A stretch of 41,024 bases of DNA from positions 1 through 41,024 of the IMG/VR virus record IMGVR_UViG_3300042510_000134; one strand, 5' to 3'. How positions within the stretch are numbered: position 1 is the stretch's first letter; every line of letters begins with the position of its first letter. The notes beneath the pieces were generated by a model. That model saw nothing but the letters and a program-made list of their open reading frames with translations. It had not been told where the DNA came from and searched no databases. Source of the stretch: a virus. Its lineage: Duplodnaviria > Caudoviricetes. This document shows, in pieces, positions 1-41,024 of this stretch. Both the position numbers and the translations under genes were made by a program.

Positions 1-501
1 GCCAGACACCAAGTATTCTAGAGTGTCGATGGTATATCTACTTAGGTCAATCATCTCTCCTGTCCCAGAGTCTCTGGACATCCAGTAGTTTCCTTGATTG
101 ACGGTTACGCCAAGCATCATCTCTAGACCAACTTTATAAAAGCCAAGTTGTAGGTCAGATGTTGGTCTACGCGCTGATGTCTTAAGGTCAACAATGACTA
201 ACTCACCATTAACCTCAAAGACACGGTCAATCACCATCTTCACAGGCACGTCTGCGATGACAGGATTGAGTTCTATTTCGATTGCTTTAGCCCCTTGAGG
301 GGTTTTCCAAATCTTCCAATTCGTATTGCTCTTACGCCAAGATATGTAGTTATCGACCCACTGTGGGCCCTTCTCATTCCACCAGTTAGCATCTTCCTTA
401 TTCGGGTTAGCAATGGTTGCTCGTCCAGCAACTCTAGCCTTAGTAAAATCAAGGTCTTTGGTCTCATCACTCCAGGCTTTAGCCCATAACGCATTAGTCA
501 T
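1..501 (-). CDS. PD-(D/E)XK (Cas4/RecB-like) exonuclease, C-terminal catalytic part; runs off the window start
   Basis: Manual translation from ATG at 501: MTNALWAKAWSDE...AIEIELNPVIADVPVKMVIDRVFEVNGELVIVDLKTSARRPTSDLQLGFY. It has the E...IDR...DxKT...QLxxY motifs of RecB-family nucleases. Not in the ORF track because it is truncated. Confidence 0.8.
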   Translation of the reverse strand, partial: MTNALWAKAWSDETKDLDFTKARVAGRATIANPNKEDANWWNEKGPQWVDNYISWRKSNTNWKIWKTPQGAKAIEIELNPVIADVPVKMVIDRVFEVNGELVIVDLKTSARRPTSDLQLGFYKVGLEMMLGVTVNQGNYWMSRDSGTGEMIDLSRYTIDTLEYLVSG

Positions 502-682
502 TTGCTAGGTCCCATTCCTCAGTTGCTGCGTGGAATGCTCTACCGCCAGCAGACCAGATGCTTGGTTCTTCGGGTAGTTTTAATAGTCGACCTAGATAAT
601 ACTGATACCCACAGGTCAGGTAGGTAGTGAATGCCGAGTATGATACGTGGGCTGGCAGTTCATAGCCCTGTAATTGAATCAT
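494..682 (-). CDS. N-terminal part of the Cas4/RecB-like exonuclease, as a separate 62 aa ORF
   Basis: HVSYSAFTTYLTCGYQYYL...GRAFHAATE matches the S-x-S...C...Y...G..FH N-terminal signature of phage PD-(D/E)XK exonucleases. SD AGGAG upstream. Confidence 0.75.
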   Translation of the reverse strand: MIQLQGYELPAHVSYSAFTTYLTCGYQYYLGRLLKLPEEPSIWSAGGRAFHAATEEWDLAND

Positions 683-687
683 TTACT

Positions 688-756
688 TCTCCTGTCGTTA
701 GATATCCTAGCCCTAAGCGGAGGACAGGAGAGTACTCAACACTTGGGCTAGGAATA
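688..756 (-). promoter_or_regulatory. Predicted SD-sequestering pseudoknot leader (copy A)
   Basis: Stem 742-756 pairs with 703-717. Loop UCUCCUGUC (731-723) is the exact complement of GACAGGAGA (696-688), which contains the SD. Confidence 0.6.
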
Positions 757-19215: not shown

Positions 19216-22200
19216 TATGGAACCGCCTTATAGGAATCACGAGAGTAGTATGAAAGTAAAGACCTAAACACTGCACGAGATGCTTCACGCACAGCAAAAT
19301 CACCAGAACCTAAATCAGATAAAATACGCTCTACATTTTGACGGTATTCGCGTTTTAAAGCAGAAGCATTATATAACGCTCTTACATCTGGGCTTTCAGA
19401 AAAAGCCAAGAAATCATCCACTGCTTGTAGTGCAGTTCGCATACGTAATCTTGAAGCCTCATCTATCGGGGCATTAACATCATTTATCATCTCACGAATT
19501 GTTCTCATCATAGATTGCTCAGTAGCAATTTCATTACCACCGCCAGTAATAGCCTCTAATAGCAATGGGTTAGAATCAATTAAACCAGCGCGTGCTGCAG
19601 TAGAAGCATCAATAATAAATCTACGTTCTGAAATACTGCCTTCGCTGGCTAGTTTTTCCCGCTCCCAAGAAGCAACATCATAGTAACGTTGTTTATCTTC
19701 TGCTACTTGCACATCATCAAAATACTTTTCTAAATCTTTGTCCTTAACTAAATCATTAGCCTGCATCCAGTTATAGGCTGCTGCATTAAACTCGCCAGTG
19801 CGAGGAGCAAATATATAGGCTGCTTCTCCATACGTTTTAATTAACTTACGATTTTCTAAAGCCCAATTTTTCATCTCATCTGTAGACTTAATAAGAACTT
19901 TAGTTTGATTCTCATTACGAGATACAGTATAAACAATCTTTCCAGGATACTGACCAGTAAATATACTCAATGCCATTTCAAATGGGTCTTGAATATCACT
20001 GCCGTATTTTGTTTGTATTTTTTCTAATATATCGAAAAATTCTGGGCGTAATCCATTTATACCTACATCTAATAAATAGTCTGGAACTCCTTGGCTCTCT
20101 TGAACAGAAGGAGCAATTGGTGAAACCAAACCTAAAGCAGAACGCATAAACAATACATTGTGTGCGCTGATTCTAATATTTTTTAAATAGTCAGCCTTTT
20201 CTTGATTAGAAGCATTAGGGTTTAAATAAATACCATTGGCTGCATTGTATGCAATTGCTTGCATAGCAGCAGTAACTTCTTGTCTATCTTTTTCATTAGG
20301 GTCTATCATTGTATAAAGTTTTGCTAAAGTACTTGGAACTATAGCCCTGCGAACTGTAATGTTGTCGCCAATTGAACCTAATGCAAAGTTGTCAATATTC
20401 TCAGCAGTTTTTTGTGCTATTGGATTATCAAAATTACCTAAGAAATTTTTAATTCCTATAACTCCAAGTGCTGCAATAGGACCGCTAAACTGTGGCACAC
20501 CTGCTTCTGGGGCAAAAGAAGGGTTAGCAAATTCTAGTTTAAAAGTAAAATCGTTAAACAATGGTTGTTTGTATAATGAATCCGATTGTCCCGTTAAAGC
20601 ACGAAGGGTAGTGTCTGTTGCCTTAAAGATAACATTATCCATAGGCATCATTACATATTTCTTGCCATCAGCATCTTCATATACATCACCACTTGCATTA
20701 AGTCCGATGTGGGCTAAACGCATACGATAAAGCATTTGTGGTGTAACATCTTTAAGACGGTATACACGGCGATAAAAATCTTCAGTAGCCCTATAAAAAC
20801 GACCAACTGTACGAACCGATAAAGCAAAGTTACTTCGAATTGAAGGGTTATCAGCAAACTTAAGAACTTGGTCTACTGCTTCATTCATTCCTATTTCAGC
20901 AAAACGCTTCTGCCCTAAAAGTTCGGCTCTTCTCTCAAGCATAGTACTTGCATCAGGAGTTTTATATTTATCTGGAAAAGCAGCCTTTTGTTTAGCAACA
21001 TATTGGCTAACCCATTCACGCTGTAAACCAGAATATGCTTTACGATACTTTAAATAAGTAACAGAAACAATAGGTTGACGAAGAATAGAAGTTAGTTGCC
21101 TATCCATCATCTCCATTAAGTTATTTCCTACAGCGCGAAACGCTGAAGGAAAATCAGTAAACTCTTGAAAATCAATACGAGTATTAATAAAACCATCTAA
21201 AGAAAAACCTTTTGTTAAGTCATCAAATTCATCTATGTTTACAGATGCTGCAGACTTCTGCCATAGGCTAGTTTCTGTTTCAAATGTAGGTATAATTGCG
21301 CCCTTAAGTTGTCTGCGTTCTTCTACCTTCATTAAAAGATTATCGTGCTTATCCCTTATAGCATTAAATAAACCTTCGTTATAGCGACCAAAATCAGAAG
21401 TACCGTGAAAAGTATTACGCATATCAATTAACATACCTTCAGCGTAAATACGAACTATTTCTTCATCAGGCAATCCTTGCTGACGATAAGTAACGGTATC
21501 ACCAAAATATGACAAAAACTTTTGAATAGATGGCTCGGCGCCTTTTTTAATGCGGTATGCGTTTCCAACAAACTCTACGCCTACGCTTTGCATAATTTGC
21601 CCAACGCCTCTTTTTAAATCTTCAGGTGTTTTAAGAGCACGATTTTGAAAAAATACAGTAGCAGGTGCAACCTTAAAGCCATCTACTAATTCTAAAGCGC
21701 CGTGTTGACGAGGTACTGCAAAACGAATAAACCAGTTATCAAAATGAGCAATGGTTAAATATAATGGGTCTGTCTTTCTTAACTCATCAATCTCTATTTT
21801 TTTATAGTCACCATATTTTAAAGTATCTTTTTTGCCAAGCCTACCTGCCTCGCGCAATCTATCGGAAACTATATTCAAGGCACGAGTTAACTCAGATATG
21901 TTTATTTGACCCGTTGTAAAGGGTTCATCTAATTTTCCGCTAATAGTTTTAGTAGCAACAGAAGATGCCATTGCGCCTAAAGTATCTGGATGATGAATCA
22001 TTAACTCTGTCCACCAGCCTTTATCTTCATCGCTCAAGCCTTTAAGAAAAATAGATGCACGCTCAGCAACTTTTTTATTTAATGCAACGTGCATTATTTC
22101 AGAAGGCGCTAAAGCCAAGTCGTTAGATAGTTTATTAAGGTCATTTAACTCAGTCACAAGATTATCTAACAAAGTATTACGTTCTGCTAAAGAAATTTCA

Positions 22201-24398
22201 CTAACAGGAACTTTTGCTCCTACTAATTTTCGGAATTTATCTGTAATTAAAGGTGTAGCATCGGGTGAGCCAGTATAAGCAGTAGTGCTTCGACCAAATT
22301 TTCTTCCTGTTCCTTTAGCATAATTTAATATGTCTTTAGCAGGAGCAGAAATTGCGTACATAAAACCTTCGTCAATTGCTGAACGAATACCTAAACGTGG
22401 AAAAAGAGTAAAAATAGACCAAAAATCTACAAAATTACGGGCTAAACGATTTTGAGTAGCACCACCTATTGCATAAATAAGGCTTTGTTTAGATTTTACT
22501 TGATATGCAACTGAAGCAATTTCTTCATAAGGTAATGGCGCTATTGCACTGGCTAACTGTGATGGTTGAATAGCACCAGAACGAAGCAATTCTGACTGCC
22601 CATTTTGGACACGCACAGTATGTGGGCTAAGTAATTTAGCAATATCATCAGAAATAGCAGTTCTTGAAGTAGTTGTAAAGCCAGCCTTTTCATTTAAAGT
22701 TTTTGCTAAAATTTCTTCCATAAATTCATTACCCATAGGATTGCCGTGTAATCCAGAACGCATCATAATGGCGCCATATAGGTTGCGTATAATAACAACC
22801 TGTTCATCTTCACTAGATTTTAAAAACTTCTGTGTTGTAAACTCTGCTAAATCTCTGCTTAAAACTTGTCTTGCCATAACACGGAAAGTGTCTGCTGTTT
22901 TAATAGCATTATCACCGACCATAATAAATTGTCCGCCTGGATTACGTGCTCCAAGTCTTCCAATGCCTAGTAACATCTTACGAAATTTAGAAACATCTTT
23001 CTCAATATCTAAAAGTTGATTAATTGCTGGGTTAACAGCCTTATCTATTTCTTCCCCGCTTTTAGATAGAATTTTAATTACTTCTTCGCCTTTTGCGTTT
23101 AACTCATCTGTTGTTTTACGAACAGATAAAGCAGAACCTGTAGTTGCATTAAAGACATCGTCTAATATTTTGTTAAAGCCATAGGTTAAACGGCGTTGAT
23201 TACGGGCTGTAGCAACACCATTGCGCTTAAAAGAAATACCATCAAGACGTCCTGATAAAAGAAGCATTGTGTTTTCAGCATCAGAAAATACTTCTTGGGC
23301 TTTTTCAGCATTAAACATTTTATTGCGAACAAAAAAATCAATTGCTTCATCATTGTTATAACCTGTATAACGGCGACCAATGTATTTACGAACGACTGCT
23401 CTTTGAGCATCATCGGTAGCATCGGCTAAACGCTTTAAGTCTTTACCTAATTGCTCATCCCATAATTTGCGAACACCGTCATCTTGAAACACACGGGCTA
23501 CTGCTGCGCCAGAAGAATCCCCAGCGTTCATCATCTTAGTAGCCATATCTGCTAGTTGGCTACCACGAGTAATAGCCTTAGATGTTCCACCAGTAATCCA
23601 AGTTAATGGGTCAATAATAATCTGATACATAAAATCAATAGCACCAGAAACATTTTTAGTTGTGCCATCAATGTAATCGCCAGAAGGTCCACCATTTTTA
23701 GGTGGTTTAGTATCAAACATACGAACAAAATCTCTACCAGGAGATACTTGTGCGTATTTAGTTGCATCCATTACTTGCTTAAAACTATCAGGGTCATTAA
23801 ATGCTTCAGTAACTGCACTAACAATACCTGGGGTTAAACTTCCATAGGCTTCTAGTATTTCGCCTGGGCGCCTACCTTGTAGCAATTGCTTAGCAACAAA
23901 TACTTTTTCTTTACCAAAATTATCTATAGTTTCTGCTAAAGCACCATTGTCATAAATGTCTCTGCCGTCCCAAGCATCAGACCAAACTTTTGCATCAAAG
24001 ATTTCTTCGCCTTGAGCAATCTGGCGAGTAACCAAATAAGGTGTATTTATTATACGATTGTAACCACCAGCAACTTTAAATAATGAAATGAGTGGGCTTG
24101 CTGCAACTTTACCTACAAATTTAAGTGCACCAACTGCTCTATCAGAAAAAGTTGGGGGCTTTTTCATATATTCAGAATTACTATAAAAAAACTTAAGAGT
24201 TTCTTGAATGTCTGGGTCTAATGAATCATATCTTTTTCGTGCTTCTTCTACTGGCAAACGATTTAGTTCACGATTTTTTTTAATCGCCCAACTCATTTGC
24301 TCAATCTGATTACCTTCTCCAGGCGTCAGATTTGCTCTTAAAGCAGCCGAATATAAATTTGGATTTACCTCTGCCACAACTGGTGCGACATAGCGCAT
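19215..24398 (-). CDS. Large internal virion / DNA ejection protein (1727 aa)
   Basis: Size, helical composition and position are typical of podovirus ejectosome proteins; no tape-measure periodicity seen. Confidence 0.55.
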   Translation of the reverse strand: MRYVAPVVAEVNPNLYSAALRANLTPGEGNQIEQMSWAIKKNRELNRLPVEEARKRYDSLDPDIQETLKFFYSNSEYMKKPPTFSDRAVGALKFVGKVAASPLISLFKVAGGYNRIINTPYLVTRQIAQGEEIFDAKVWSDAWDGRDIYDNGALAETIDNFGKEKVFVAKQLLQGRRPGEILEAYGSLTPGIVSAVTEAFNDPDSFKQVMDATKYAQVSPGRDFVRMFDTKPPKNGGPSGDYIDGTTKNVSGAIDFMYQIIIDPLTWITGGTSKAITRGSQLADMATKMMNAGDSSGAAVARVFQDDGVRKLWDEQLGKDLKRLADATDDAQRAVVRKYIGRRYTGYNNDEAIDFFVRNKMFNAEKAQEVFSDAENTMLLLSGRLDGISFKRNGVATARNQRRLTYGFNKILDDVFNATTGSALSVRKTTDELNAKGEEVIKILSKSGEEIDKAVNPAINQLLDIEKDVSKFRKMLLGIGRLGARNPGGQFIMVGDNAIKTADTFRVMARQVLSRDLAEFTTQKFLKSSEDEQVVIIRNLYGAIMMRSGLHGNPMGNEFMEEILAKTLNEKAGFTTTSRTAISDDIAKLLSPHTVRVQNGQSELLRSGAIQPSQLASAIAPLPYEEIASVAYQVKSKQSLIYAIGGATQNRLARNFVDFWSIFTLFPRLGIRSAIDEGFMYAISAPAKDILNYAKGTGRKFGRSTTAYTGSPDATPLITDKFRKLVGAKVPVSEISLAERNTLLDNLVTELNDLNKLSNDLALAPSEIMHVALNKKVAERASIFLKGLSDEDKGWWTELMIHHPDTLGAMASSVATKTISGKLDEPFTTGQINISELTRALNIVSDRLREAGRLGKKDTLKYGDYKKIEIDELRKTDPLYLTIAHFDNWFIRFAVPRQHGALELVDGFKVAPATVFFQNRALKTPEDLKRGVGQIMQSVGVEFVGNAYRIKKGAEPSIQKFLSYFGDTVTYRQQGLPDEEIVRIYAEGMLIDMRNTFHGTSDFGRYNEGLFNAIRDKHDNLLMKVEERRQLKGAIIPTFETETSLWQKSAASVNIDEFDDLTKGFSLDGFINTRIDFQEFTDFPSAFRAVGNNLMEMMDRQLTSILRQPIVSVTYLKYRKAYSGLQREWVSQYVAKQKAAFPDKYKTPDASTMLERRAELLGQKRFAEIGMNEAVDQVLKFADNPSIRSNFALSVRTVGRFYRATEDFYRRVYRLKDVTPQMLYRMRLAHIGLNASGDVYEDADGKKYVMMPMDNVIFKATDTTLRALTGQSDSLYKQPLFNDFTFKLEFANPSFAPEAGVPQFSGPIAALGVIGIKNFLGNFDNPIAQKTAENIDNFALGSIGDNITVRRAIVPSTLAKLYTMIDPNEKDRQEVTAAMQAIAYNAANGIYLNPNASNQEKADYLKNIRISAHNVLFMRSALGLVSPIAPSVQESQGVPDYLLDVGINGLRPEFFDILEKIQTKYGSDIQDPFEMALSIFTGQYPGKIVYTVSRNENQTKVLIKSTDEMKNWALENRKLIKTYGEAAYIFAPRTGEFNAAAYNWMQANDLVKDKDLEKYFDDVQVAEDKQRYYDVASWEREKLASEGSISERRFIIDASTAARAGLIDSNPLLLEAITGGGNEIATEQSMMRTIREMINDVNAPIDEASRLRMRTALQAVDDFLAFSESPDVRALYNASALKREYRQNVERILSDLGSGDFAVREASRAVFRSLLSYYSRDSYKAVP

Positions 24399-30484: not shown

Positions 30485-30491
30485 CAACTCC

Positions 30492-30536
30492 AGGCAGGGC
30501 AGGCGCTACGGTGCCTGCTCTGCCTTACTTTTTTTT
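30492..30536 (+). terminator. Intrinsic terminator with cUACGg tetraloop
   Basis: AGGCAGGGCAGGCGC-TACG-GTGCCTGCTCTGCCT followed by a T8 run. Confidence 0.85.
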
Positions 30537-30754: not shown

Positions 30755-30972
30755 TGACTGTATATGCGACACGGCGCTGCGCTGTATGCCATAAGACAGG
30801 AACTATTATGGTAGATGAACAGGAATTGCTACACTATCTGCGTGGCAATTATGTTCAGGATTCTTTCAAGACTATGTCAGCACCACTCCGTGAACAGGTA
30901 ATAACTGGCACGCATCCTGAATGCTGGCAACAAATGTTCGGACAAGAACTAGAGGAGACTATCAATGACTAA
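30751..30972 (+). CDS. Conserved small zinc-binding phage protein
   Basis: CAVC...REQVITGTHPECW. Confidence 0.65.
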   Translation: MMTVYATRRCAVCHKTGTIMVDEQELLHYLRGNYVQDSFKTMSAPLREQVITGTHPECWQQMFGQELEETIND

Positions 30973-32036: not shown

Positions 32037-32050
32037 ACAAAGGAGACAGT

Positions 32051-32479
32051 ATGGCAAAAGGAAACAACAAAACAATCAATGTAAAATTACCTACAGCAAA
32101 AGTAATTATTGCATTGCAACAAGCGCTAGCCAAGTTAGAACTTGACTACACATCACAAGACCAAGCCGAAAAAGAATATCAAAAGGCTACAGAAAAATGG
32201 CGCAAAGATGTTATCAAGTTTGCGACCGATAACATATCAAAAGCAGAAAATATGCGGACTAACTATCGTCAATGGTCTGGCAATCTCAATGTTGATTTTG
32301 ATTTAACTGTTAAGGAGAATGAGTTTCCAGTTGAACCACAACGTGAGTTCGAAATAATGCATATCAGTACTTACAAAGATATGAAGGAAGAAATAAGTAA
32401 TAGTATTCGTATCCTTCAACTGACTGATGAAGAAGTAATATCTACTTCTACATACAATTCAATAGCAAGATACCTATAA
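32051..32479 (+). CDS. Hypothetical protein
   Basis: AAGGAG SD before ATG at 32051; 142 aa. Confidence 0.6.
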   Translation: MAKGNNKTINVKLPTAKVIIALQQALAKLELDYTSQDQAEKEYQKATEKWRKDVIKFATDNISKAENMRTNYRQWSGNLNVDFDLTVKENEFPVEPQREFEIMHISTYKDMKEEISNSIRILQLTDEEVISTSTYNSIARYL

Positions 32480-32490
32480 AGGAGACAGCA

Positions 32491-32700: not shown

Positions 32701-33701
32701 CCACAGAGGTAGTTAATAGACCACAGATATCAGTAAGAAACGAATCAGCCTGGACTAAATCTGGTGTGGCAGTGACAGCCACATCAGCCAGCGATGTAGC
32801 CAGACAAGCAGGACTTGACTGGTCGGTATCACTACACGATGTGACCACTACCTATCAGATTCCAGGTAAAGGATTACCCTTCCACATACCAGTCAATAAC
32901 AAGAAAGCAGTTGTTAAGACAACACCAGCAGGTGAGGTAATACCACTTGGTATTGTCGGCAACAAGTACAAGCCGCTACAAAATGCTGAAATATTCTCAG
33001 TGCTAGATACCCTGATTGATTCAGGAGATGCACGGTATGCAGCAGCAGGTGAGTATGCAGCAGGTGCCAAAGTATGGATGCTTATGCAGTTGCCTATTGA
33101 AATGGAAATCAAAGGTGACCCACACGCAGCATTCCTGCTAGCCAAAACTACACACGATGGTAGTGGCTCTGTTCTTATCCGCCCTATTATCGAACGGTTA
33201 TTCTGTCACAATCAGATTAACAAAATCTATCGGGCTACTGATAAGAAGCGTACTTATATGCTACGTCATACAACTAACTCTAAGTTAGATGTTAATGATG
33301 TCCGTGGCATTCTTGATATTGCCTACACAACTATTGATGACTACACAGTTATGTCAGAAGCAATGCTTGAGCGTCAAGTTACCCGCCAGTATGCAGTGGA
33401 TTACTTCAAGAAAGTATTCCCACTACCTAGCAAGATAGAAAATGCACCCGTTCCACTGCTATCTGCAGGTGAAAAGATGCAACGCACCAATGCCCTCAAT
33501 CACAGAGCCAGAAGCCTAGACATATACGAGAACAGTCCTACTCAGGAGAACATCCGAGAGACTGCCTTCGGTCTATGGCAGGCAGTTATTGAGTATGCCG
33601 ACCACGGCAAACCAGGTAGGTCAAAGTCACTAGGCGTTAGAACAATGTCAGGTGGCAGTGATAGCCTAAAAATAAGAGCGCAAGAACTAGCACTAGCATA
33701 G
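32697..33701 (+). CDS. DUF932 family (phage/plasmid-like TIGR03299) protein
   Basis: AGLDWSV, LGIVGNKYKPLQN.E.F, HDGSGS, R.FC.NQ, RHT and TAFGLWQAV.EY.DH motifs. Confidence 0.8.
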   Translation: MTTEVVNRPQISVRNESAWTKSGVAVTATSASDVARQAGLDWSVSLHDVTTTYQIPGKGLPFHIPVNNKKAVVKTTPAGEVIPLGIVGNKYKPLQNAEIFSVLDTLIDSGDARYAAAGEYAAGAKVWMLMQLPIEMEIKGDPHAAFLLAKTTHDGSGSVLIRPIIERLFCHNQINKIYRATDKKRTYMLRHTTNSKLDVNDVRGILDIAYTTIDDYTVMSEAMLERQVTRQYAVDYFKKVFPLPSKIENAPVPLLSAGEKMQRTNALNHRARSLDIYENSPTQENIRETAFGLWQAVIEYADHGKPGRSKSLGVRTMSGGSDSLKIRAQELALA

Positions 33702-33711
33702 GAGACTAACA

Positions 33712-34155: not shown

Positions 34156-34329
34156 ATGCCCAAGATAGCAGACCATACCTATGATGAGGCACTGCTATCT
34201 AGTAAATGTATGGCAGGTAAGCACAAAGAATGCGGTGGTATCGTGGTCATCGGTATCCGTGCATTAAGGAGACAGTGTGCTTGCCAATGCCATCTCACAT
34301 CAGAGCAATCAGATACCCGTTCTATCTGA
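34156..34329 (+). CDS. Small Cys/His protein (57 aa)
   Basis: SKC..GKH..C...CACQCH motif, common in actinobacteriophage small proteins. Confidence 0.55.
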   Translation: MPKIADHTYDEALLSSKCMAGKHKECGGIVVIGIRALRRQCACQCHLTSEQSDTRSI

Positions 34330-34335
34330 TACACT
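34327..34335 (+). promoter_or_regulatory. Extended -10 promoter element TG-A-TACACT
   Basis: Matches TGnTAnnnT and would start transcription just before the leader hairpin at 34345. Confidence 0.5.
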
Positions 34336-34344
34336 CTGCCTACT

Positions 34345-34402
34345 GAGATGGGCTGGAGTTTGATTAGTCTCCTTTTCCAGCCCGTCTCTTTTACAAGGAG
34401 AC
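34345..34402 (+). promoter_or_regulatory. Predicted SD-sequestering pseudoknot leader (copy B)
   Basis: 13 bp stem 34345-34357/34376-34388; loop GUCUCCUU (34367-34374) is the exact complement of AAGGAGAC (34395-34402). Confidence 0.6.
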
Positions 34403-34411
34403 AAGGGAAAT

Positions 34412-35197
34412 ATGAAAATAGAAATAGAACGTGATAGGTACGGACGACCATTAATAATTCCTAAAGCAGGAGGCAAGCCAGTTGCTTACACAAGAGCAAC
34501 TACAATTGCCAACAGTTTAGATGACGGCTCAGCACTAACAGCCTGGAAGATGCGTATGGCTGCAATAGGTTTAACAGTACGCAATGATTTACTACTAGCC
34601 ATCAGCGCAGCAGGCGATGACAAGATGGCTATTAACAAGTTGATAGAAGATGCTATGGAAGTAGCAGGCGCTAGCCGTGCAGCCAGTATCGGCACAGCAC
34701 TACACGCAATAGCAGAGAAACTAGATTTGGGACAGTCACCTGGCCCAATACCAGACGAATGGGCAGGGGACATCCGAGCCTATGAACAAACAACAGGACA
34801 TCTCAAGAAATTCTTTATAGAACAGTTCTGCGTGTTGGATAAGTACAAGATTGCTGGTACTCCCGACAGGATAATTGAATATAAAGGTGAGAAGTTCATT
34901 GCAGATATAAAGACTGGTCGCATTGACCATCCCAATAACATTGCTATTCAGTTAGCAATTTACGCCAACGGCTCCCCGTATGACGTTGCTACGGGTCGCC
35001 GTGGTAGTTGGGGTGATATCAATAAAGAAAAAGCAGTTATCATCCATCTTCCAGCAGGAACTGGTCTATGCAAATTAGTTTGGATAGACATTAAAGAGGG
35101 CTGGAAAGGAGTACAATTCGCAATGAAAGTAAGACAGTGGCGAGACAAGAAAGGTCTCGTTACTCCATTTGAAGAACAGGAGACAATCAGTGGCTAG
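34412..35197 (+). CDS. PD-(D/E)XK exonuclease (RecB/RecE-like)
   Basis: RDRYGRP..YTRATT start, GTALH, E..AGTPDR..IADIKTG..QLAIYA. Confidence 0.85.
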   Translation: MKIEIERDRYGRPLIIPKAGGKPVAYTRATTIANSLDDGSALTAWKMRMAAIGLTVRNDLLLAISAAGDDKMAINKLIEDAMEVAGASRAASIGTALHAIAEKLDLGQSPGPIPDEWAGDIRAYEQTTGHLKKFFIEQFCVLDKYKIAGTPDRIIEYKGEKFIADIKTGRIDHPNNIAIQLAIYANGSPYDVATGRRGSWGDINKEKAVIIHLPAGTGLCKLVWIDIKEGWKGVQFAMKVRQWRDKKGLVTPFEEQETISG

Positions 35198-35633
35198 CAC
35201 TGAAGCACCTATCAGTATCACAGTTAAGACAACAGCAGGCTCACTAGTAACAGTCCGTGCAGAGCACGGAGATGAACTAGACCAGTTGGTAGCAACAGCA
35301 TTGGAGGCTATCAAGTCAGCAGTAACAGAACTTGAATCAGCCATCAAAGCAACAGCACCAACAGTAATGGCACCAGCACAGATAGCAGCAGCACTTAGCA
35401 CATCTATCGTTGACACTGGAGGCTGGTCATCAGCACCAGTTGTTCAATCAATCGGTGGCAAGAATTGCCCTCACGGCAAGATGACTGCTATCCAAGGGAC
35501 AGGTAAAGATGGTTCCACTTATCGTGGTTACTTCTGCCCAGCACAGAAGGGTGCAATTGACAAGTGCAGAAATGTATATGTCAAAGCAGGCTCACCAGAA
35601 TGGAATACATTTGTTGCTGAACAAGTGAAGTAA
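35190..35633 (+). CDS. Conserved replication-region protein with C-terminal zinc ribbon
   Basis: GTG start after AGGAG; CPHGKM...G...YRGYFCP...C motif as in actinophage proteins located between exonuclease and helicase. Confidence 0.6.
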   Translation: MASTEAPISITVKTTAGSLVTVRAEHGDELDQLVATALEAIKSAVTELESAIKATAPTVMAPAQIAAALSTSIVDTGGWSSAPVVQSIGGKNCPHGKMTAIQGTGKDGSTYRGYFCPAQKGAIDKCRNVYVKAGSPEWNTFVAEQVK

Positions 35634-36442
35634 TGCGTACACTCAGACGCAGCATTAACAAAGCAGAGGTAGGCGGAGAACCATTACCGCCTGCCTTTGC
35701 TGCATTTGAACGGGCAGGAATTATCCTGCGCCGTGCAGAAATTACAATGATTGCTGGCGCTCCAGGTGCTGGTAAATCATCTATTGCACTGGCTATTGCA
35801 GCCAGAGCAAAGGTACCTACGCTGTATTTCAGCGCAGATACTAACGCTCACACTATGGCTATGAGATTACTTGCTATGTCTAGTCGCATTACACAGACAG
35901 CAGCAGAACAGATGCTCAAGCGTGAGCCACAAGCAGCAGAAGATATACTTACCCTTAATAATCATTTGTTCTGGTCTTTTGAATCCACTCCCACTCTTAA
36001 AGATTTAGATGAAGAGGTCAGTGCATTTGAAACAGTTTGGGGTAGAAGTCCTACACTTATAGTTGTAGATAACCTAATGGATATTGCAATGGATGGACAC
36101 GAAGAATTCCAGGGTATGCGTGCGGCAATGAAGGAGTTGAAGTATCTTGCAAGAGATACCAACTCCGCCGTGCTTGTTCTGCACCATACCAAGGAAGGCT
36201 TTGATAACTATCCTTGCCAGCCTAGGTCAGCAGTACAAGGGCTGGTCAATCAGATACCAGCAATGGTATTAACTATCGGTCAGATGAAACAGGGTGATGA
36301 AACCTATCTATGTGTAGCCCCAGTCAAGAACAGATACGGGCGAGCAGACCAGACAGGTAACAACTATGTCAGCCTAGCCTTCAACCCTGACAGTATGTAT
36401 CTAGAAGATGTACAAATCAAATACACACAGGAGACAATGTAA
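35633..36442 (+). CDS. DnaB-like (SF4) helicase, ATPase domain only
   Basis: GAPGAGKS Walker A, LIVVDNL Walker B, VLHH, VKNRYG. Confidence 0.85.
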   Translation: MRTLRRSINKAEVGGEPLPPAFAAFERAGIILRRAEITMIAGAPGAGKSSIALAIAARAKVPTLYFSADTNAHTMAMRLLAMSSRITQTAAEQMLKREPQAAEDILTLNNHLFWSFESTPTLKDLDEEVSAFETVWGRSPTLIVVDNLMDIAMDGHEEFQGMRAAMKELKYLARDTNSAVLVLHHTKEGFDNYPCQPRSAVQGLVNQIPAMVLTIGQMKQGDETYLCVAPVKNRYGRADQTGNNYVSLAFNPDSMYLEDVQIKYTQETM

Positions 36443-36946: not shown

Positions 36947-37122
36947 AAGAATTAGAAGAACAAAAAGATTGGCATAATTATTTGTTTAATGTGTATAGTA
37001 AAAATAAAGAAACAAAAGTAGATGCAGAATGCCATATGATGGCTGCTTTTACATTGATACGTACAATGCAATCAATAGAAAAATATATAGAAGAAGCAAA
37101 CAATTTACAAATTGTTAATTGA
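36943..37122 (+). CDS. Hypothetical protein
   Basis: ATGA coupling; AT-rich 59 aa ORF. Confidence 0.45.
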   Translation: MKELEEQKDWHNYLFNVYSKNKETKVDAECHMMAAFTLIRTMQSIEKYIEEANNLQIVN

Positions 37123-37123
37123 A

Positions 37124-37516
37124 ATGGAGAAACATAGTATTGCTGCATACCTAGAGTATGTAGGCGCCGCCGTGCCGTCAGGCGGGCACGGCTGGCGCAA
37201 GATAAAATGCCCATTCCACACAGATAAACACGCATCTGCTGGAGTTAACTTTGATGAAGGTAGATTCAAATGCCACGGATGCGGTGTCGGTGGAGATGTT
37301 TACGATTTAATTATGCACAAAGAAGGAGGTAACTATCGTGAGGCTGTCAAATTCGCAGAGGCAATTTCTCCTACAGGCAGCGACAGAATACGCCAAACAC
37401 ATAAACCAAGCAGCAGACTATCTAGCAACGCGGGGTCTGTCGGTAGAAGACACAAAGATGTTTCACCTAGGAGTAGTGGACAATCCATTTCCAGGACACG
37501 AAGGCTACAAGGGTAA
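37124..37516 (+). CDS. DNA primase zinc-binding (CHC2) subunit
   Basis: CPFH.DKHAS...FKCHGCGVGGD.YDLI...EG..Y.EA. Confidence 0.85.
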   Translation: MEKHSIAAYLEYVGAAVPSGGHGWRKIKCPFHTDKHASAGVNFDEGRFKCHGCGVGGDVYDLIMHKEGGNYREAVKFAEAISPTGSDRIRQTHKPSSRLSSNAGSVGRRHKDVSPRSSGQSISRTRRLQG

Positions 37517-37964
37517 GTTAGTTATACCTTACGTCACCCCATCAGGGGTGGTTGACCTGCGGTTTCGTAGTATCGGGGGCGAAGACCCTAAGTACATAGG
37601 ACTACCAGGAGCAAAGACAACTATGTTCAATGCTCAGACAGTTCTAACAGCCAACGGATATATCTGTGTCACCGAAGGTGAGATAGATTGTATTACGGTG
37701 GCAGCCAAGACAGGACATCCAGCCGTAGGCATACCAGGTGCTAACAACTGGAAGCCTTATTACAGCAAGATACTTGATGACTTCGACACCGTGATAGTAC
37801 TAGCAGATGGCGACAGTCCAGGGCTAGAATTTGGTAAGAAGATAAGTAGAGAGTTAGGCAATGTTAATATAGTTCAGATGCCCGAAGGGCACGATGTCAA
37901 CAGCATCGTCTTACAAGAAGGGGCTGCGTGGTTAGATGAAAGAATCAGAAAGTGCTTCGTATAA
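37338..37964 (+). CDS. DNA primase catalytic (TOPRIM) subunit
   Basis: YLATRGL, IPY, PKY, VTEGEID, DGDSPG, DVN motifs; own AAGGAGGT SD before GTG. Confidence 0.85.
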   Translation: MRLSNSQRQFLLQAATEYAKHINQAADYLATRGLSVEDTKMFHLGVVDNPFPGHEGYKGKLVIPYVTPSGVVDLRFRSIGGEDPKYIGLPGAKTTMFNAQTVLTANGYICVTEGEIDCITVAAKTGHPAVGIPGANNWKPYYSKILDDFDTVIVLADGDSPGLEFGKKISRELGNVNIVQMPEGHDVNSIVLQEGAAWLDERIRKCFV

Positions 37965-40435: not shown

Positions 40436-40445
40436 TAGAAAGCAA

Positions 40446-40483
40446 AATAGACCCCCTATCCAATTAAGGTAGGGGGTCTATTT
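40446..40483. terminator. Bidirectional terminator between convergent arms
   Basis: AAATAGACCCCCTA...TAGGGGGTCTATTT inverted repeat. Confidence 0.8.
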
Positions 40484-40517
40484 GTGTCTGTAATCGCCTT
40501 ATAGGGCGTTTAAAGGG

Positions 40518-40703
40518 CTACTTAGCACCTCTGCCAAACTCAGGGGCAGATGGGTCTAACCACTTCAATACTGGTCCAAGGAGACCAGCAAGTGCTGCTG
40601 TTCCTAGAACCTTAAGGTTAGTTTCTCCTGCTAGGTAGAGTGCGATGGCAGCGGCTGCTGCGGCACGGAACCAAGTCAGCGATAGTTGCTTTAGTTGTTC
40701 CAT
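40518..40703 (-). CDS. Holin (allele 2)
   Basis: 61 aa, clearly homologous but not identical to 966-1151. Confidence 0.7.
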   Translation of the reverse strand: MEQLKQLSLTWFRAAAAAAIALYLAGETNLKVLGTAALAGLLGPVLKWLDPSAPEFGRGAK

Positions 40704-41024
40704 TAGATTGCCTTTCGTTTTGTATTGTGAACCTTACAGCAGGTACATACTGGTACCACAGTGGTACCTTCTGCAACCTTCTTCTTAGGCTGTGGCTGTA
40801 GTTTAGCCATAACCTGATTCACAACTTTAGGTTGATTCAGCCACCAGAACCAGGGGCTAGTGTCGCTACGGTGAGTAGCGCTAATAGAAATATGTAGATG
40901 CTTAACGTGAGGATTACTACCTGTGTACTTCCTATTGCCTTCTTTGCGTCTGGCTCTTGACCAAATTTTTTTATTGTATATGAGGTAATCCACTCGTTCA
41001 TCTTCTTTAAGTTTCTCAAAAATG
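40703..41024 (-). CDS. Endolysin C-terminal part (allele 2); 5' end continues at 1474 on the circle
   Basis: Homologous to 1152-1473, with substitutions up to 40925 and identity afterwards. Confidence 0.8.
   Translation of the reverse strand, partial: IFEKLKEDERVDYLIYNKKIWSRARRKEGNRKYTGSNPHVKHLHISISATHRSDTSPWFWWLNQPKVVNQVMAKLQPQPKKKVAEGTTVVPVCTCCKVHNTKRKAI

Follow-up and report, generated by a model that had tools for sequence, protein, structure and literature searches.

The replication operon and its leader hairpin

The DNA analysed here, referred to as the window, comprises all 41,024 nt of the viral record IMGVR_UViG_3300042510_000134. It contains a phage of about 39.5 kb whose structural genes lie on the minus strand; the plus strand carries the early genes and those for replication. 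Protein relatives within named collections are phages of Actinobacteria, and the nearest helicase (57% identity) is found in a record naming the cultured Planktophila phage E7 (PMC10202952); the presumed host of the window's phage is deduced from such protein relatives. The genes of the replication operon occur in the order exonuclease, gp49-like gene, helicase, resolvase and primase. The primase at 37112-37964 is encoded by two overlapping ORFs, for a zinc finger and a Toprim domain, in differing frames. Terminator-like hairpins are located at 30488-30536, 3' of a 108-aa early gene, and at 40440-40490, where both arms converge. The leader and the first genes of the operon comprise the following features:

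34327..34335, plus strand: extended -10 element TGnTAnnnT, here TGATACACT; T, G, T, A and T invariant in 21/21 aligned leaders
34345..34357, plus strand: 5' arm of stem P1; two-sided changes in 8/12 pairs
34358..34375, plus strand: loop of 18 nt; core 34367-34374 complementary to the early-gene tag AAGGAGAC
34376..34388, plus strand: 3' arm of stem P1; 13 bp with the 5' arm, including one U.G
34395..34402, plus strand: cis copy of the tag AAGGAGAC, possible pseudoknot partner
34412..35197, plus strand: PD-(D/E)XK exonuclease, type A, first gene of the replication operon (phrog_466, E 6e-62)
35190..35633, plus strand: L5/D29 gp49-like protein (weak match to PF25690; Atlas 0.96), without functional label
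35633..36442, plus strand: DnaB-like helicase (phrog_243, E 1e-74)

The coordinates that a preliminary description had given for the -10 element, the 13-bp stem, the loop and the downstream complement were all reproduced exactly. Based on the spacing from the -10 element, transcription is predicted to start near 34341-34342. Compared with shuffled sequences, the hairpin had a z-score of -2.88 (2/200 shuffles equally stable) and the fold of 34341-34414 one of -3.25 (0/200). An 8-nt complement to a given SD is expected by chance in such a loop at a frequency of about 1.6e-4. Loop bases 5' of the core 34367-34374 lengthen the complement to several early starts. A second SD-like element, AAGGGA, lies nearer to the ATG at 34412 than the cis copy of the tag does. 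The element at 34327-34414 is a real structured RNA.

Among eight RNA runs compared out of 24 listed, all of them consisting of contigs, two contigs cover the leader, one from X5 (34190-34408) and one from X3 (34167-34405), and one of these two ends is loose. Since both contigs run through the predicted promoter, they show only that the region is present in RNA libraries. A search of the window with Rfam 15, which includes preQ1, SAM-II and 6C, gave no match at the gathering score, and searches of 14 and 6 further loci and of 34250-34500 gave sub-threshold matches only; the element had initially been considered not to belong to a described family, and the Rfam search likewise gave none. No match to the leader was obtained by BLAST against 50,697 phage records. 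When viral contigs were scanned for the pattern, 43 stretches came up; of nine new ones inspected, two were exonuclease leaders and seven were seemingly unrelated. A search with the helicase P0122 yielded no loci, and a metagenome scan yielded one, equal in length to L351. We found no published description of the leader element in a literature search that most subscription papers lay outside, and the six supplementary files of PMC10690425 that were examined held no match to the motif.

A second hairpin of this kind is located at the left end of the window:

688..756, minus strand: B-type leader, loop complementary to the tag GACAGGAG, assigned to another phage lineage (fold z -3.0 and -3.2)
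1..682, minus strand: type-B exonuclease, split into a 62-aa N-terminal ORF (682-494) and a C-terminal ORF from 501

The features of 688-756 on the minus strand are as first described. The type-B exonuclease was split in 75/75 loci in which the N-terminal ORF was found; two loci (L353 and L361) have a further ORF between the halves. The window segment 934-1451 occurs again at 40486-41002 with 80-91% identity, and the two segments are diverged copies of holin-like and lysin-like genes. The left-end exonuclease is missing from 5/5 complete A-type genomes and the right one from 5/5 B-type genomes; as a positive control, exoA was found in 11/11 A, 6/6 C and 0/10 B genomes. Because the exonuclease types are mutually exclusive in complete genomes and the 934-1451 segment is repeated, bases 1-934 probably represent a foreign lineage in a chimeric contig. 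The two phage lineages were probably joined at the 934-1451/40486-41002 repeat, and the hairpin at 688-756 would thus probably stem from another phage. That both instances regulate one genome was rejected, as complete genomes have one exonuclease type or the other. Phage E7 itself (record OX376640, description LanE43-AprE7; PMC10202952) has a B leader (z -4.1) and eight starts with the tag.

Conservation of the leader and of its partner sequences

Leader type A was present at 76/80 loci of the same exonuclease; three loci had another leader and one was truncated. A strict B-leader pattern was found at 65/80 loci of the other exonuclease, and among the misses four still show the motif and seven begin too near the contig end. 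For the analysis of covariation, 21 A and 23 B leaders were aligned, picked for divergence among distinct leaders. In stem 1, two-sided changes occurred in 6/11 pairs of the B leaders, in addition to the 8/12 pairs of A, and the covariation score was reached by 0/500 shuffles. In slid controls pairing fell to 34-52%. On the sense strand G.U outnumbered A.C weakly in A (17 versus 11) and clearly in B (27 versus 6). The helix between loop and downstream sequence was paired in 95.8% (A) and 96.6% (B) of cells, with two-sided changes in 0/8 and 0/9 pairs and one-sided G.U changes only. Thus, covariation, which was to be checked in both stems, is present in stem 1 and is not two-sided in the loop-SD helix within lineages. 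What had been taken as natural covariation of loop and SD between the two instances of the window is a difference between lineages.

The loop (16-25 nt) is nearly invariant, whereas the stem drifts. Four U directly follow the stem in the window; among 22 distinct A leaders U occupies 1 to 6 of the 8 bases after the stem, and B leaders have no U run. In two B genomes a 49-aa gene separates the leader from the exonuclease, and the leader therefore belongs to the head of the operon and not to the exonuclease gene. A conserved structured 5' leader heading the exonuclease-helicase-primase operon, as originally proposed, is borne out by its presence at 76/80 loci and by the covariation of the stem. 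An extra copy of the tag is located at 34266-34273, inside a 57-aa ORF and about 100 nt upstream of the loop, and 24/41 distinct A leaders have a tag copy 40-150 nt upstream.

The sequence complementary to the loop had been described as an SD-like element before the exonuclease gene. The same AGGAGAC is shared by many early-gene starts. In the window, the tag is found at the following positions in addition to the cis copy:

30953..30959, plus strand: tag AGGAGAC of an early 58-aa gene; strongest predicted loop duplex (-18.7 kcal/mol)
32040..32047, plus strand: tag of an early 143-aa gene, tagged in 8/8 A and 0/2 C genomes
32479..32486, plus strand: tag of an early 69-aa gene
33700..33706, plus strand: tag of an early 146-aa gene; orthologue tagged in 10/11 A and 0/6 C genomes (duplex -16.4 kcal/mol)
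35178..35184, plus strand: tag of the gp49-like gene, within the operon; 4/10 A genomes tagged
36429..36435, plus strand: tag of a 58-aa gene after the helicase

Counting the cis site, AGGAGAC precedes 5-12 starts per genome in 11/11 A genomes, mostly those of small early genes, and 0-2 starts in six C and nine B genomes. The B tag GACAGGAG occurs at 3-14 starts per genome in 9/9 B genomes (cis site counted) and at 0-1 in A and C. The C genomes nest inside the A group in a helicase tree covering 31/32 genomes, with a long-branch warning on its deep joins; they have most genes in common with A and are without the loop (0/80 loci) and without the tag. This contrast in tag and loop between A and C is a single evolutionary event. 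The base following AGGAGA was C at 70/115 A sites versus 6/65 C sites, and the commonest flank upstream of AGGAG in B was GAC. In both A and B, conservation of the tag reaches past the predicted 16S-pairing core, and the tags recur as an asymmetric motif at the RBSs of non-structural genes. A de novo test of top 8-mers was noisy; strong loop matches were located in the leaders of A, B, E and F.

CTTAA often lies upstream of the B tag (early arms of G006-G009, G018 and G019); the loop has no match to it, and the B system may have a second determinant besides the loop. The early arm also contains CUGAUGAG in two genomes (G006 near 37918 and G008 near 22669), and G008 adds CGAAAC before a tagged start. 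We take this combination of CUGAUGAG and CGAAAC to resemble a minimal hammerhead core.

Each of four lineages (A, B, E and F) has its own tag and a leader loop complementary to it. Lineage E (L350) has a third tag, with a loop complement of at least 8 nt at eight starts; the fit of the E loop to its own SD is about 5 nt/bp. In A genomes, 2-6 starts fit the E loop as well, so this loop is not fully private. In lineage F (L361 and L364) the terminal loop matches a fourth tag at eight starts over up to 13 nt and has no match to its own SD. A separate bulge is complementary to the SD of F, and bulge and SD differ jointly between L361 and L364. In a loop-by-genome matrix the own loop was better than shuffled loops (0-4/300) in 11/14 genomes tested. 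In lineages G and I, the leader hairpin has a loop of pyrimidines, but no matching tag set was found (one start each); there, shuffled loops were equally good in 139/300 and 183/300 cases. The loop of lineage H matched no start, and the early arm of H is probably outside the contig. Most of 63 distinct exonuclease upstream regions of a wider set had no such hairpin, as judged by eye among the regions listed.

In type C leaders (L224-L303, e.g. L079 and L257) a compact H-type pseudoknot replaces the hairpin at 78/80 loci. TGnTAnnnT is found upstream of this leader as well, which has no anti-SD loop. Its SD lies outside the knot, and stem 2 of L257 shows a compensatory change. A type D compact knot, CUGAG...AAACUGCUC, precedes the exonuclease at 2/80 loci (L237 and L292) and, in some genomes, other early genes (G004 near 34965, G005 near 20860, counted along the joined stretches). 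No Rfam match was obtained for the type C knot or for the type D knot of L237 and L292.

Pairing in cis and in trans

The duplex of the loop with the cis site was calculated at -12.9 kcal/mol. Stronger pairing, at -13.5 to -18.7 kcal/mol, was obtained with five early starts and the start of the gp49-like gene, and 28 late-gene starts gave -4.0 to -13.0 kcal/mol. The complement continues at the tags outside the cis site, where the next base was T at 40/70 positions versus 0/8 cis sites. Between the cis copy and the start codon there are 10-14 nt, compared with 5-8 nt for 63/70 other tag copies; because of this distance, the cis copy is probably not the main SD. The linker of the knot has 6 nt and needs to span about 45-47 Å over a stem of 13-14 bp, using general helix parameters. 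According to this model, the cis knot would be sterically strained and feasible only with a frayed stem base. Of the SD-occluding pseudoknot put forward in the preliminary description, the ability of the loop to pair upstream of the first start is retained in nearly all cells of both alignments; the strained linker and the non-SD spacing speak against it. In lineages E and F, the terminal loop is matched to early genes instead of to the cis SD. No support was found for either regulator of a protein- or ligand-controlled switch as suggested there. The cis arm is favored by the maintenance of the cis copy at a non-SD spacing, by changes in it that preserve pairing, and by the dedicated bulge of F. 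Together, these sequence features suggest that both arms are retained and that pairing in trans would be the main function.

We therefore favor, with moderate confidence, a reading in which the leader is a trans-acting anti-SD RNA that would silence early genes and has an additional cis arm. When the replication promoter comes on, the transcript would start at the 5' side of the hairpin, and the loop could then pair in trans with the tags on early RBSs; the active RNA may be the full mRNA or a short leader fragment. By analogy to the C-rich loops of B11/6C, the duplex of loop and tag would block 30S binding and turn off early translation as a group. The same loop (in lineage F the second bulge) may pair in cis as a weak pseudoknot that would dampen the first gene of the operon or mask the loop. 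Trans anti-SD riboregulation itself is known; the form within a phage leader, with a lineage-specific loop and a cis arm, would be a new variant. Several points argue against this reading: any anti-SD loop fits SD cores to some extent, the matches of loop and tag at the level of lineages are four events, not dozens, and G and I have no tag set that fits their loop. Further such points are the matches of the E loop in A genomes, the CTTAA of the B tags, the K loop that does not track the SAS of cluster K (see below) and the scarcity of such hairpins among the 63 upstream regions judged by eye. A tentative extension, which we regard as possible, is a mutual switch consisting of RNA only, in which the loop would silence the tagged early mRNAs and the same pairing would free the cis knot and activate the replisome operon, tag and loop perhaps being rewritten jointly per lineage.

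The leader could instead act purely in cis, as a pseudoknot covering the operon's first SD until a protein or ligand opens it; the tag would then be a lineage habit that extends to the cis site. The helix kept in about 96% of cells, the separate cis bulge of lineage F, the loops of G, H and I, which can pair with their own SD in the absence of a tag set, and the different knots that relatives have in this place (types C and D) are consistent with this; it leaves unexplained, however, why tag and loop are jointly absent in C and why the terminal loops of E and F fit early genes. With no two-sided change in the cis helix, a strained linker and a cis copy off the SD spacing, we consider a purely cis role rather unlikely. 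A reversed direction, in which early mRNAs trigger opening of the cis knot and thereby activate the replication operon or serve as a titration timer, would agree with the stronger pairing of the trans sites compared to the cis site, with the marginal stability of the cis knot and with the use of one loop for both partners in A and B. There is, however, little cis pairing to relieve in E, the two elements are separate in F, and the K1 hairpin of cluster K phages has no SAS (see below) just downstream, which makes such a trigger quite improbable.

An unlikely possibility is that the tag is read by a phage or host protein, either a RegB-like nuclease or a RegA-like repressor, with the loop shielding the cis copy of the operon. 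T4 RegB cleaves early SDs at GGAG and is hindered by structure, according to the available part of PMC3014915; moreover, B tags have bases outside the reach of the loop, and cluster K retains its SAS where the loop has drifted. Yet tblastn, which is weak for small proteins, gave no window protein shared by A, B, E and F but missing from C, and the terminal loop of E and F has no good cis target to shield. Finally, the hairpin might simply terminate early transcription or stabilize the 5' end, its complementarity being incidental. The four U after the stem of the window, the ends of the RNA contigs at 34405 and 34408 (one of them loose) and the unrelated compact knots at the same site in relatives would fit such an element. 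The varying U content of A leaders (1-6 of 8) and the lack of a U run in B, a 16-25 nt loop that hardly changes on a drifting stem, the conserved -10 just upstream and the agreement between loop and tag across four lineages render it very improbable.

Relation to known systems

The start-associated sequences (SAS) of actinobacteriophages resemble the tags in that an asymmetric, over-conserved motif occurs at the RBS of non-structural genes, as far as they are described in the sources available. For cluster K, the motifs have been described and the available part of the report leaves open whether RNA or protein is the binder (PMC3203893); the same source notes one reversed SAS copy in four cluster K phages. 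The role of SAS is still given as unknown in the accessible sections of a report from 2024 (PMC11373665), and cluster EF Microbacterium phages are also described to have SAS-type motifs (PMC7302621, in part). In Anaya (record 22000-60835), the sole reversed SAS makes up the terminal loop in a long hairpin, and the region of this hairpin is common to 208 records. In Adephagia, genes 92 and 93 flank the reversed-SAS hairpin, and late transcription has been reported to begin there (PMC11373665, in part). The K loop was perfect in 5/13 cluster K phages. Bryler, Amgine and Shandong1 have a loop with two mismatches and keep SAS at 11-14 starts, Yuna and LeMond are without the loop, and three other K phages differ. 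Presence of SAS was checked in 8/13 K phages, namely those other than Yuna, LeMond and the three differing ones. Covariation of the K loop with SAS was rejected, as the loop does not track SAS in 8/13 phages, namely the three with two mismatches, the two without the loop and the three that differ. Since the loop is perfect in only 5/13 phages, SAS in K is not maintained by the loop. The late leader of cluster K (L334:37740-38010, L335-L346) follows a TAGACT element and is a conserved RNA with multiple hairpins over about 250 nt; it has several invariant blocks besides the anti-SAS hairpin and is often unannotated or covered by a hypothetical ORF. In contrast to SAS, the tags described here have 7-11 nt and are lineage-specific, and their loop stands at the head of the replication operon, with a copy of the tag in cis. 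The cluster K loop differs in heading a late transcript. The K1 loop matches 0-3 starts in the genomes studied here, and the K consensus is therefore not shared by them.

The leader also shares features with several RNA and protein regulators. The preQ1 and SAM-II riboswitches likewise have an H-type topology near the RBS. They differ from the present leader, which has no Rfam match, no metabolic gene context and a loop sequence that follows the tag of the phage. The operator of T4 gene 32 is, like this leader, capable of forming a pseudoknot on a phage replication/recombination transcript, but its knot is found 67 nt before the start, is described without SD pairing and is bound by gp32 (PMC3014915, in part). 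The compact leaders of types C and D come close to this layout and the A and B leaders do not; as far as tested, the leader is probably not a gene 32-type operator.

The B11/6C sRNA of Actinobacteria has hairpin loops that bind many RBSs and repress, as supported by compensatory mutations in the part of the work available (PMC10470900). According to the same source, B11 is a free sRNA of the host whose two loops have C runs and whose targets are G-rich and generic, whereas the candidate described here is a phage mRNA leader without Rfam match whose lineage-specific loop is complementary to many RBSs. T4 RegB would be similar to our proposal in shutting off early genes as a group via an SD motif (PMC3014915, in part); RegB is a protein nuclease, and the candidate reader of the motif is here an RNA loop. 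By analogy, the leader would belong to neither the B11/6C nor the RegB system; it would work like the former and serve the purpose of the latter.

If correct, the mutual RNA switch would explain how SAS of actinobacteriophages work, which has been unexplained since 2011. A leader loop that mirrors the tag and changes with it across lineages makes the SAS question directly testable, and it points to an economical layout with one loop governing a tagged set of genes. As a cultured phage-host pair (E7) carries the B version, the model can be tested in culture. The leader would then represent an RNA counterpart of T4 RegB, acting as an early-to-middle switch in phages of abundant freshwater bacteria.
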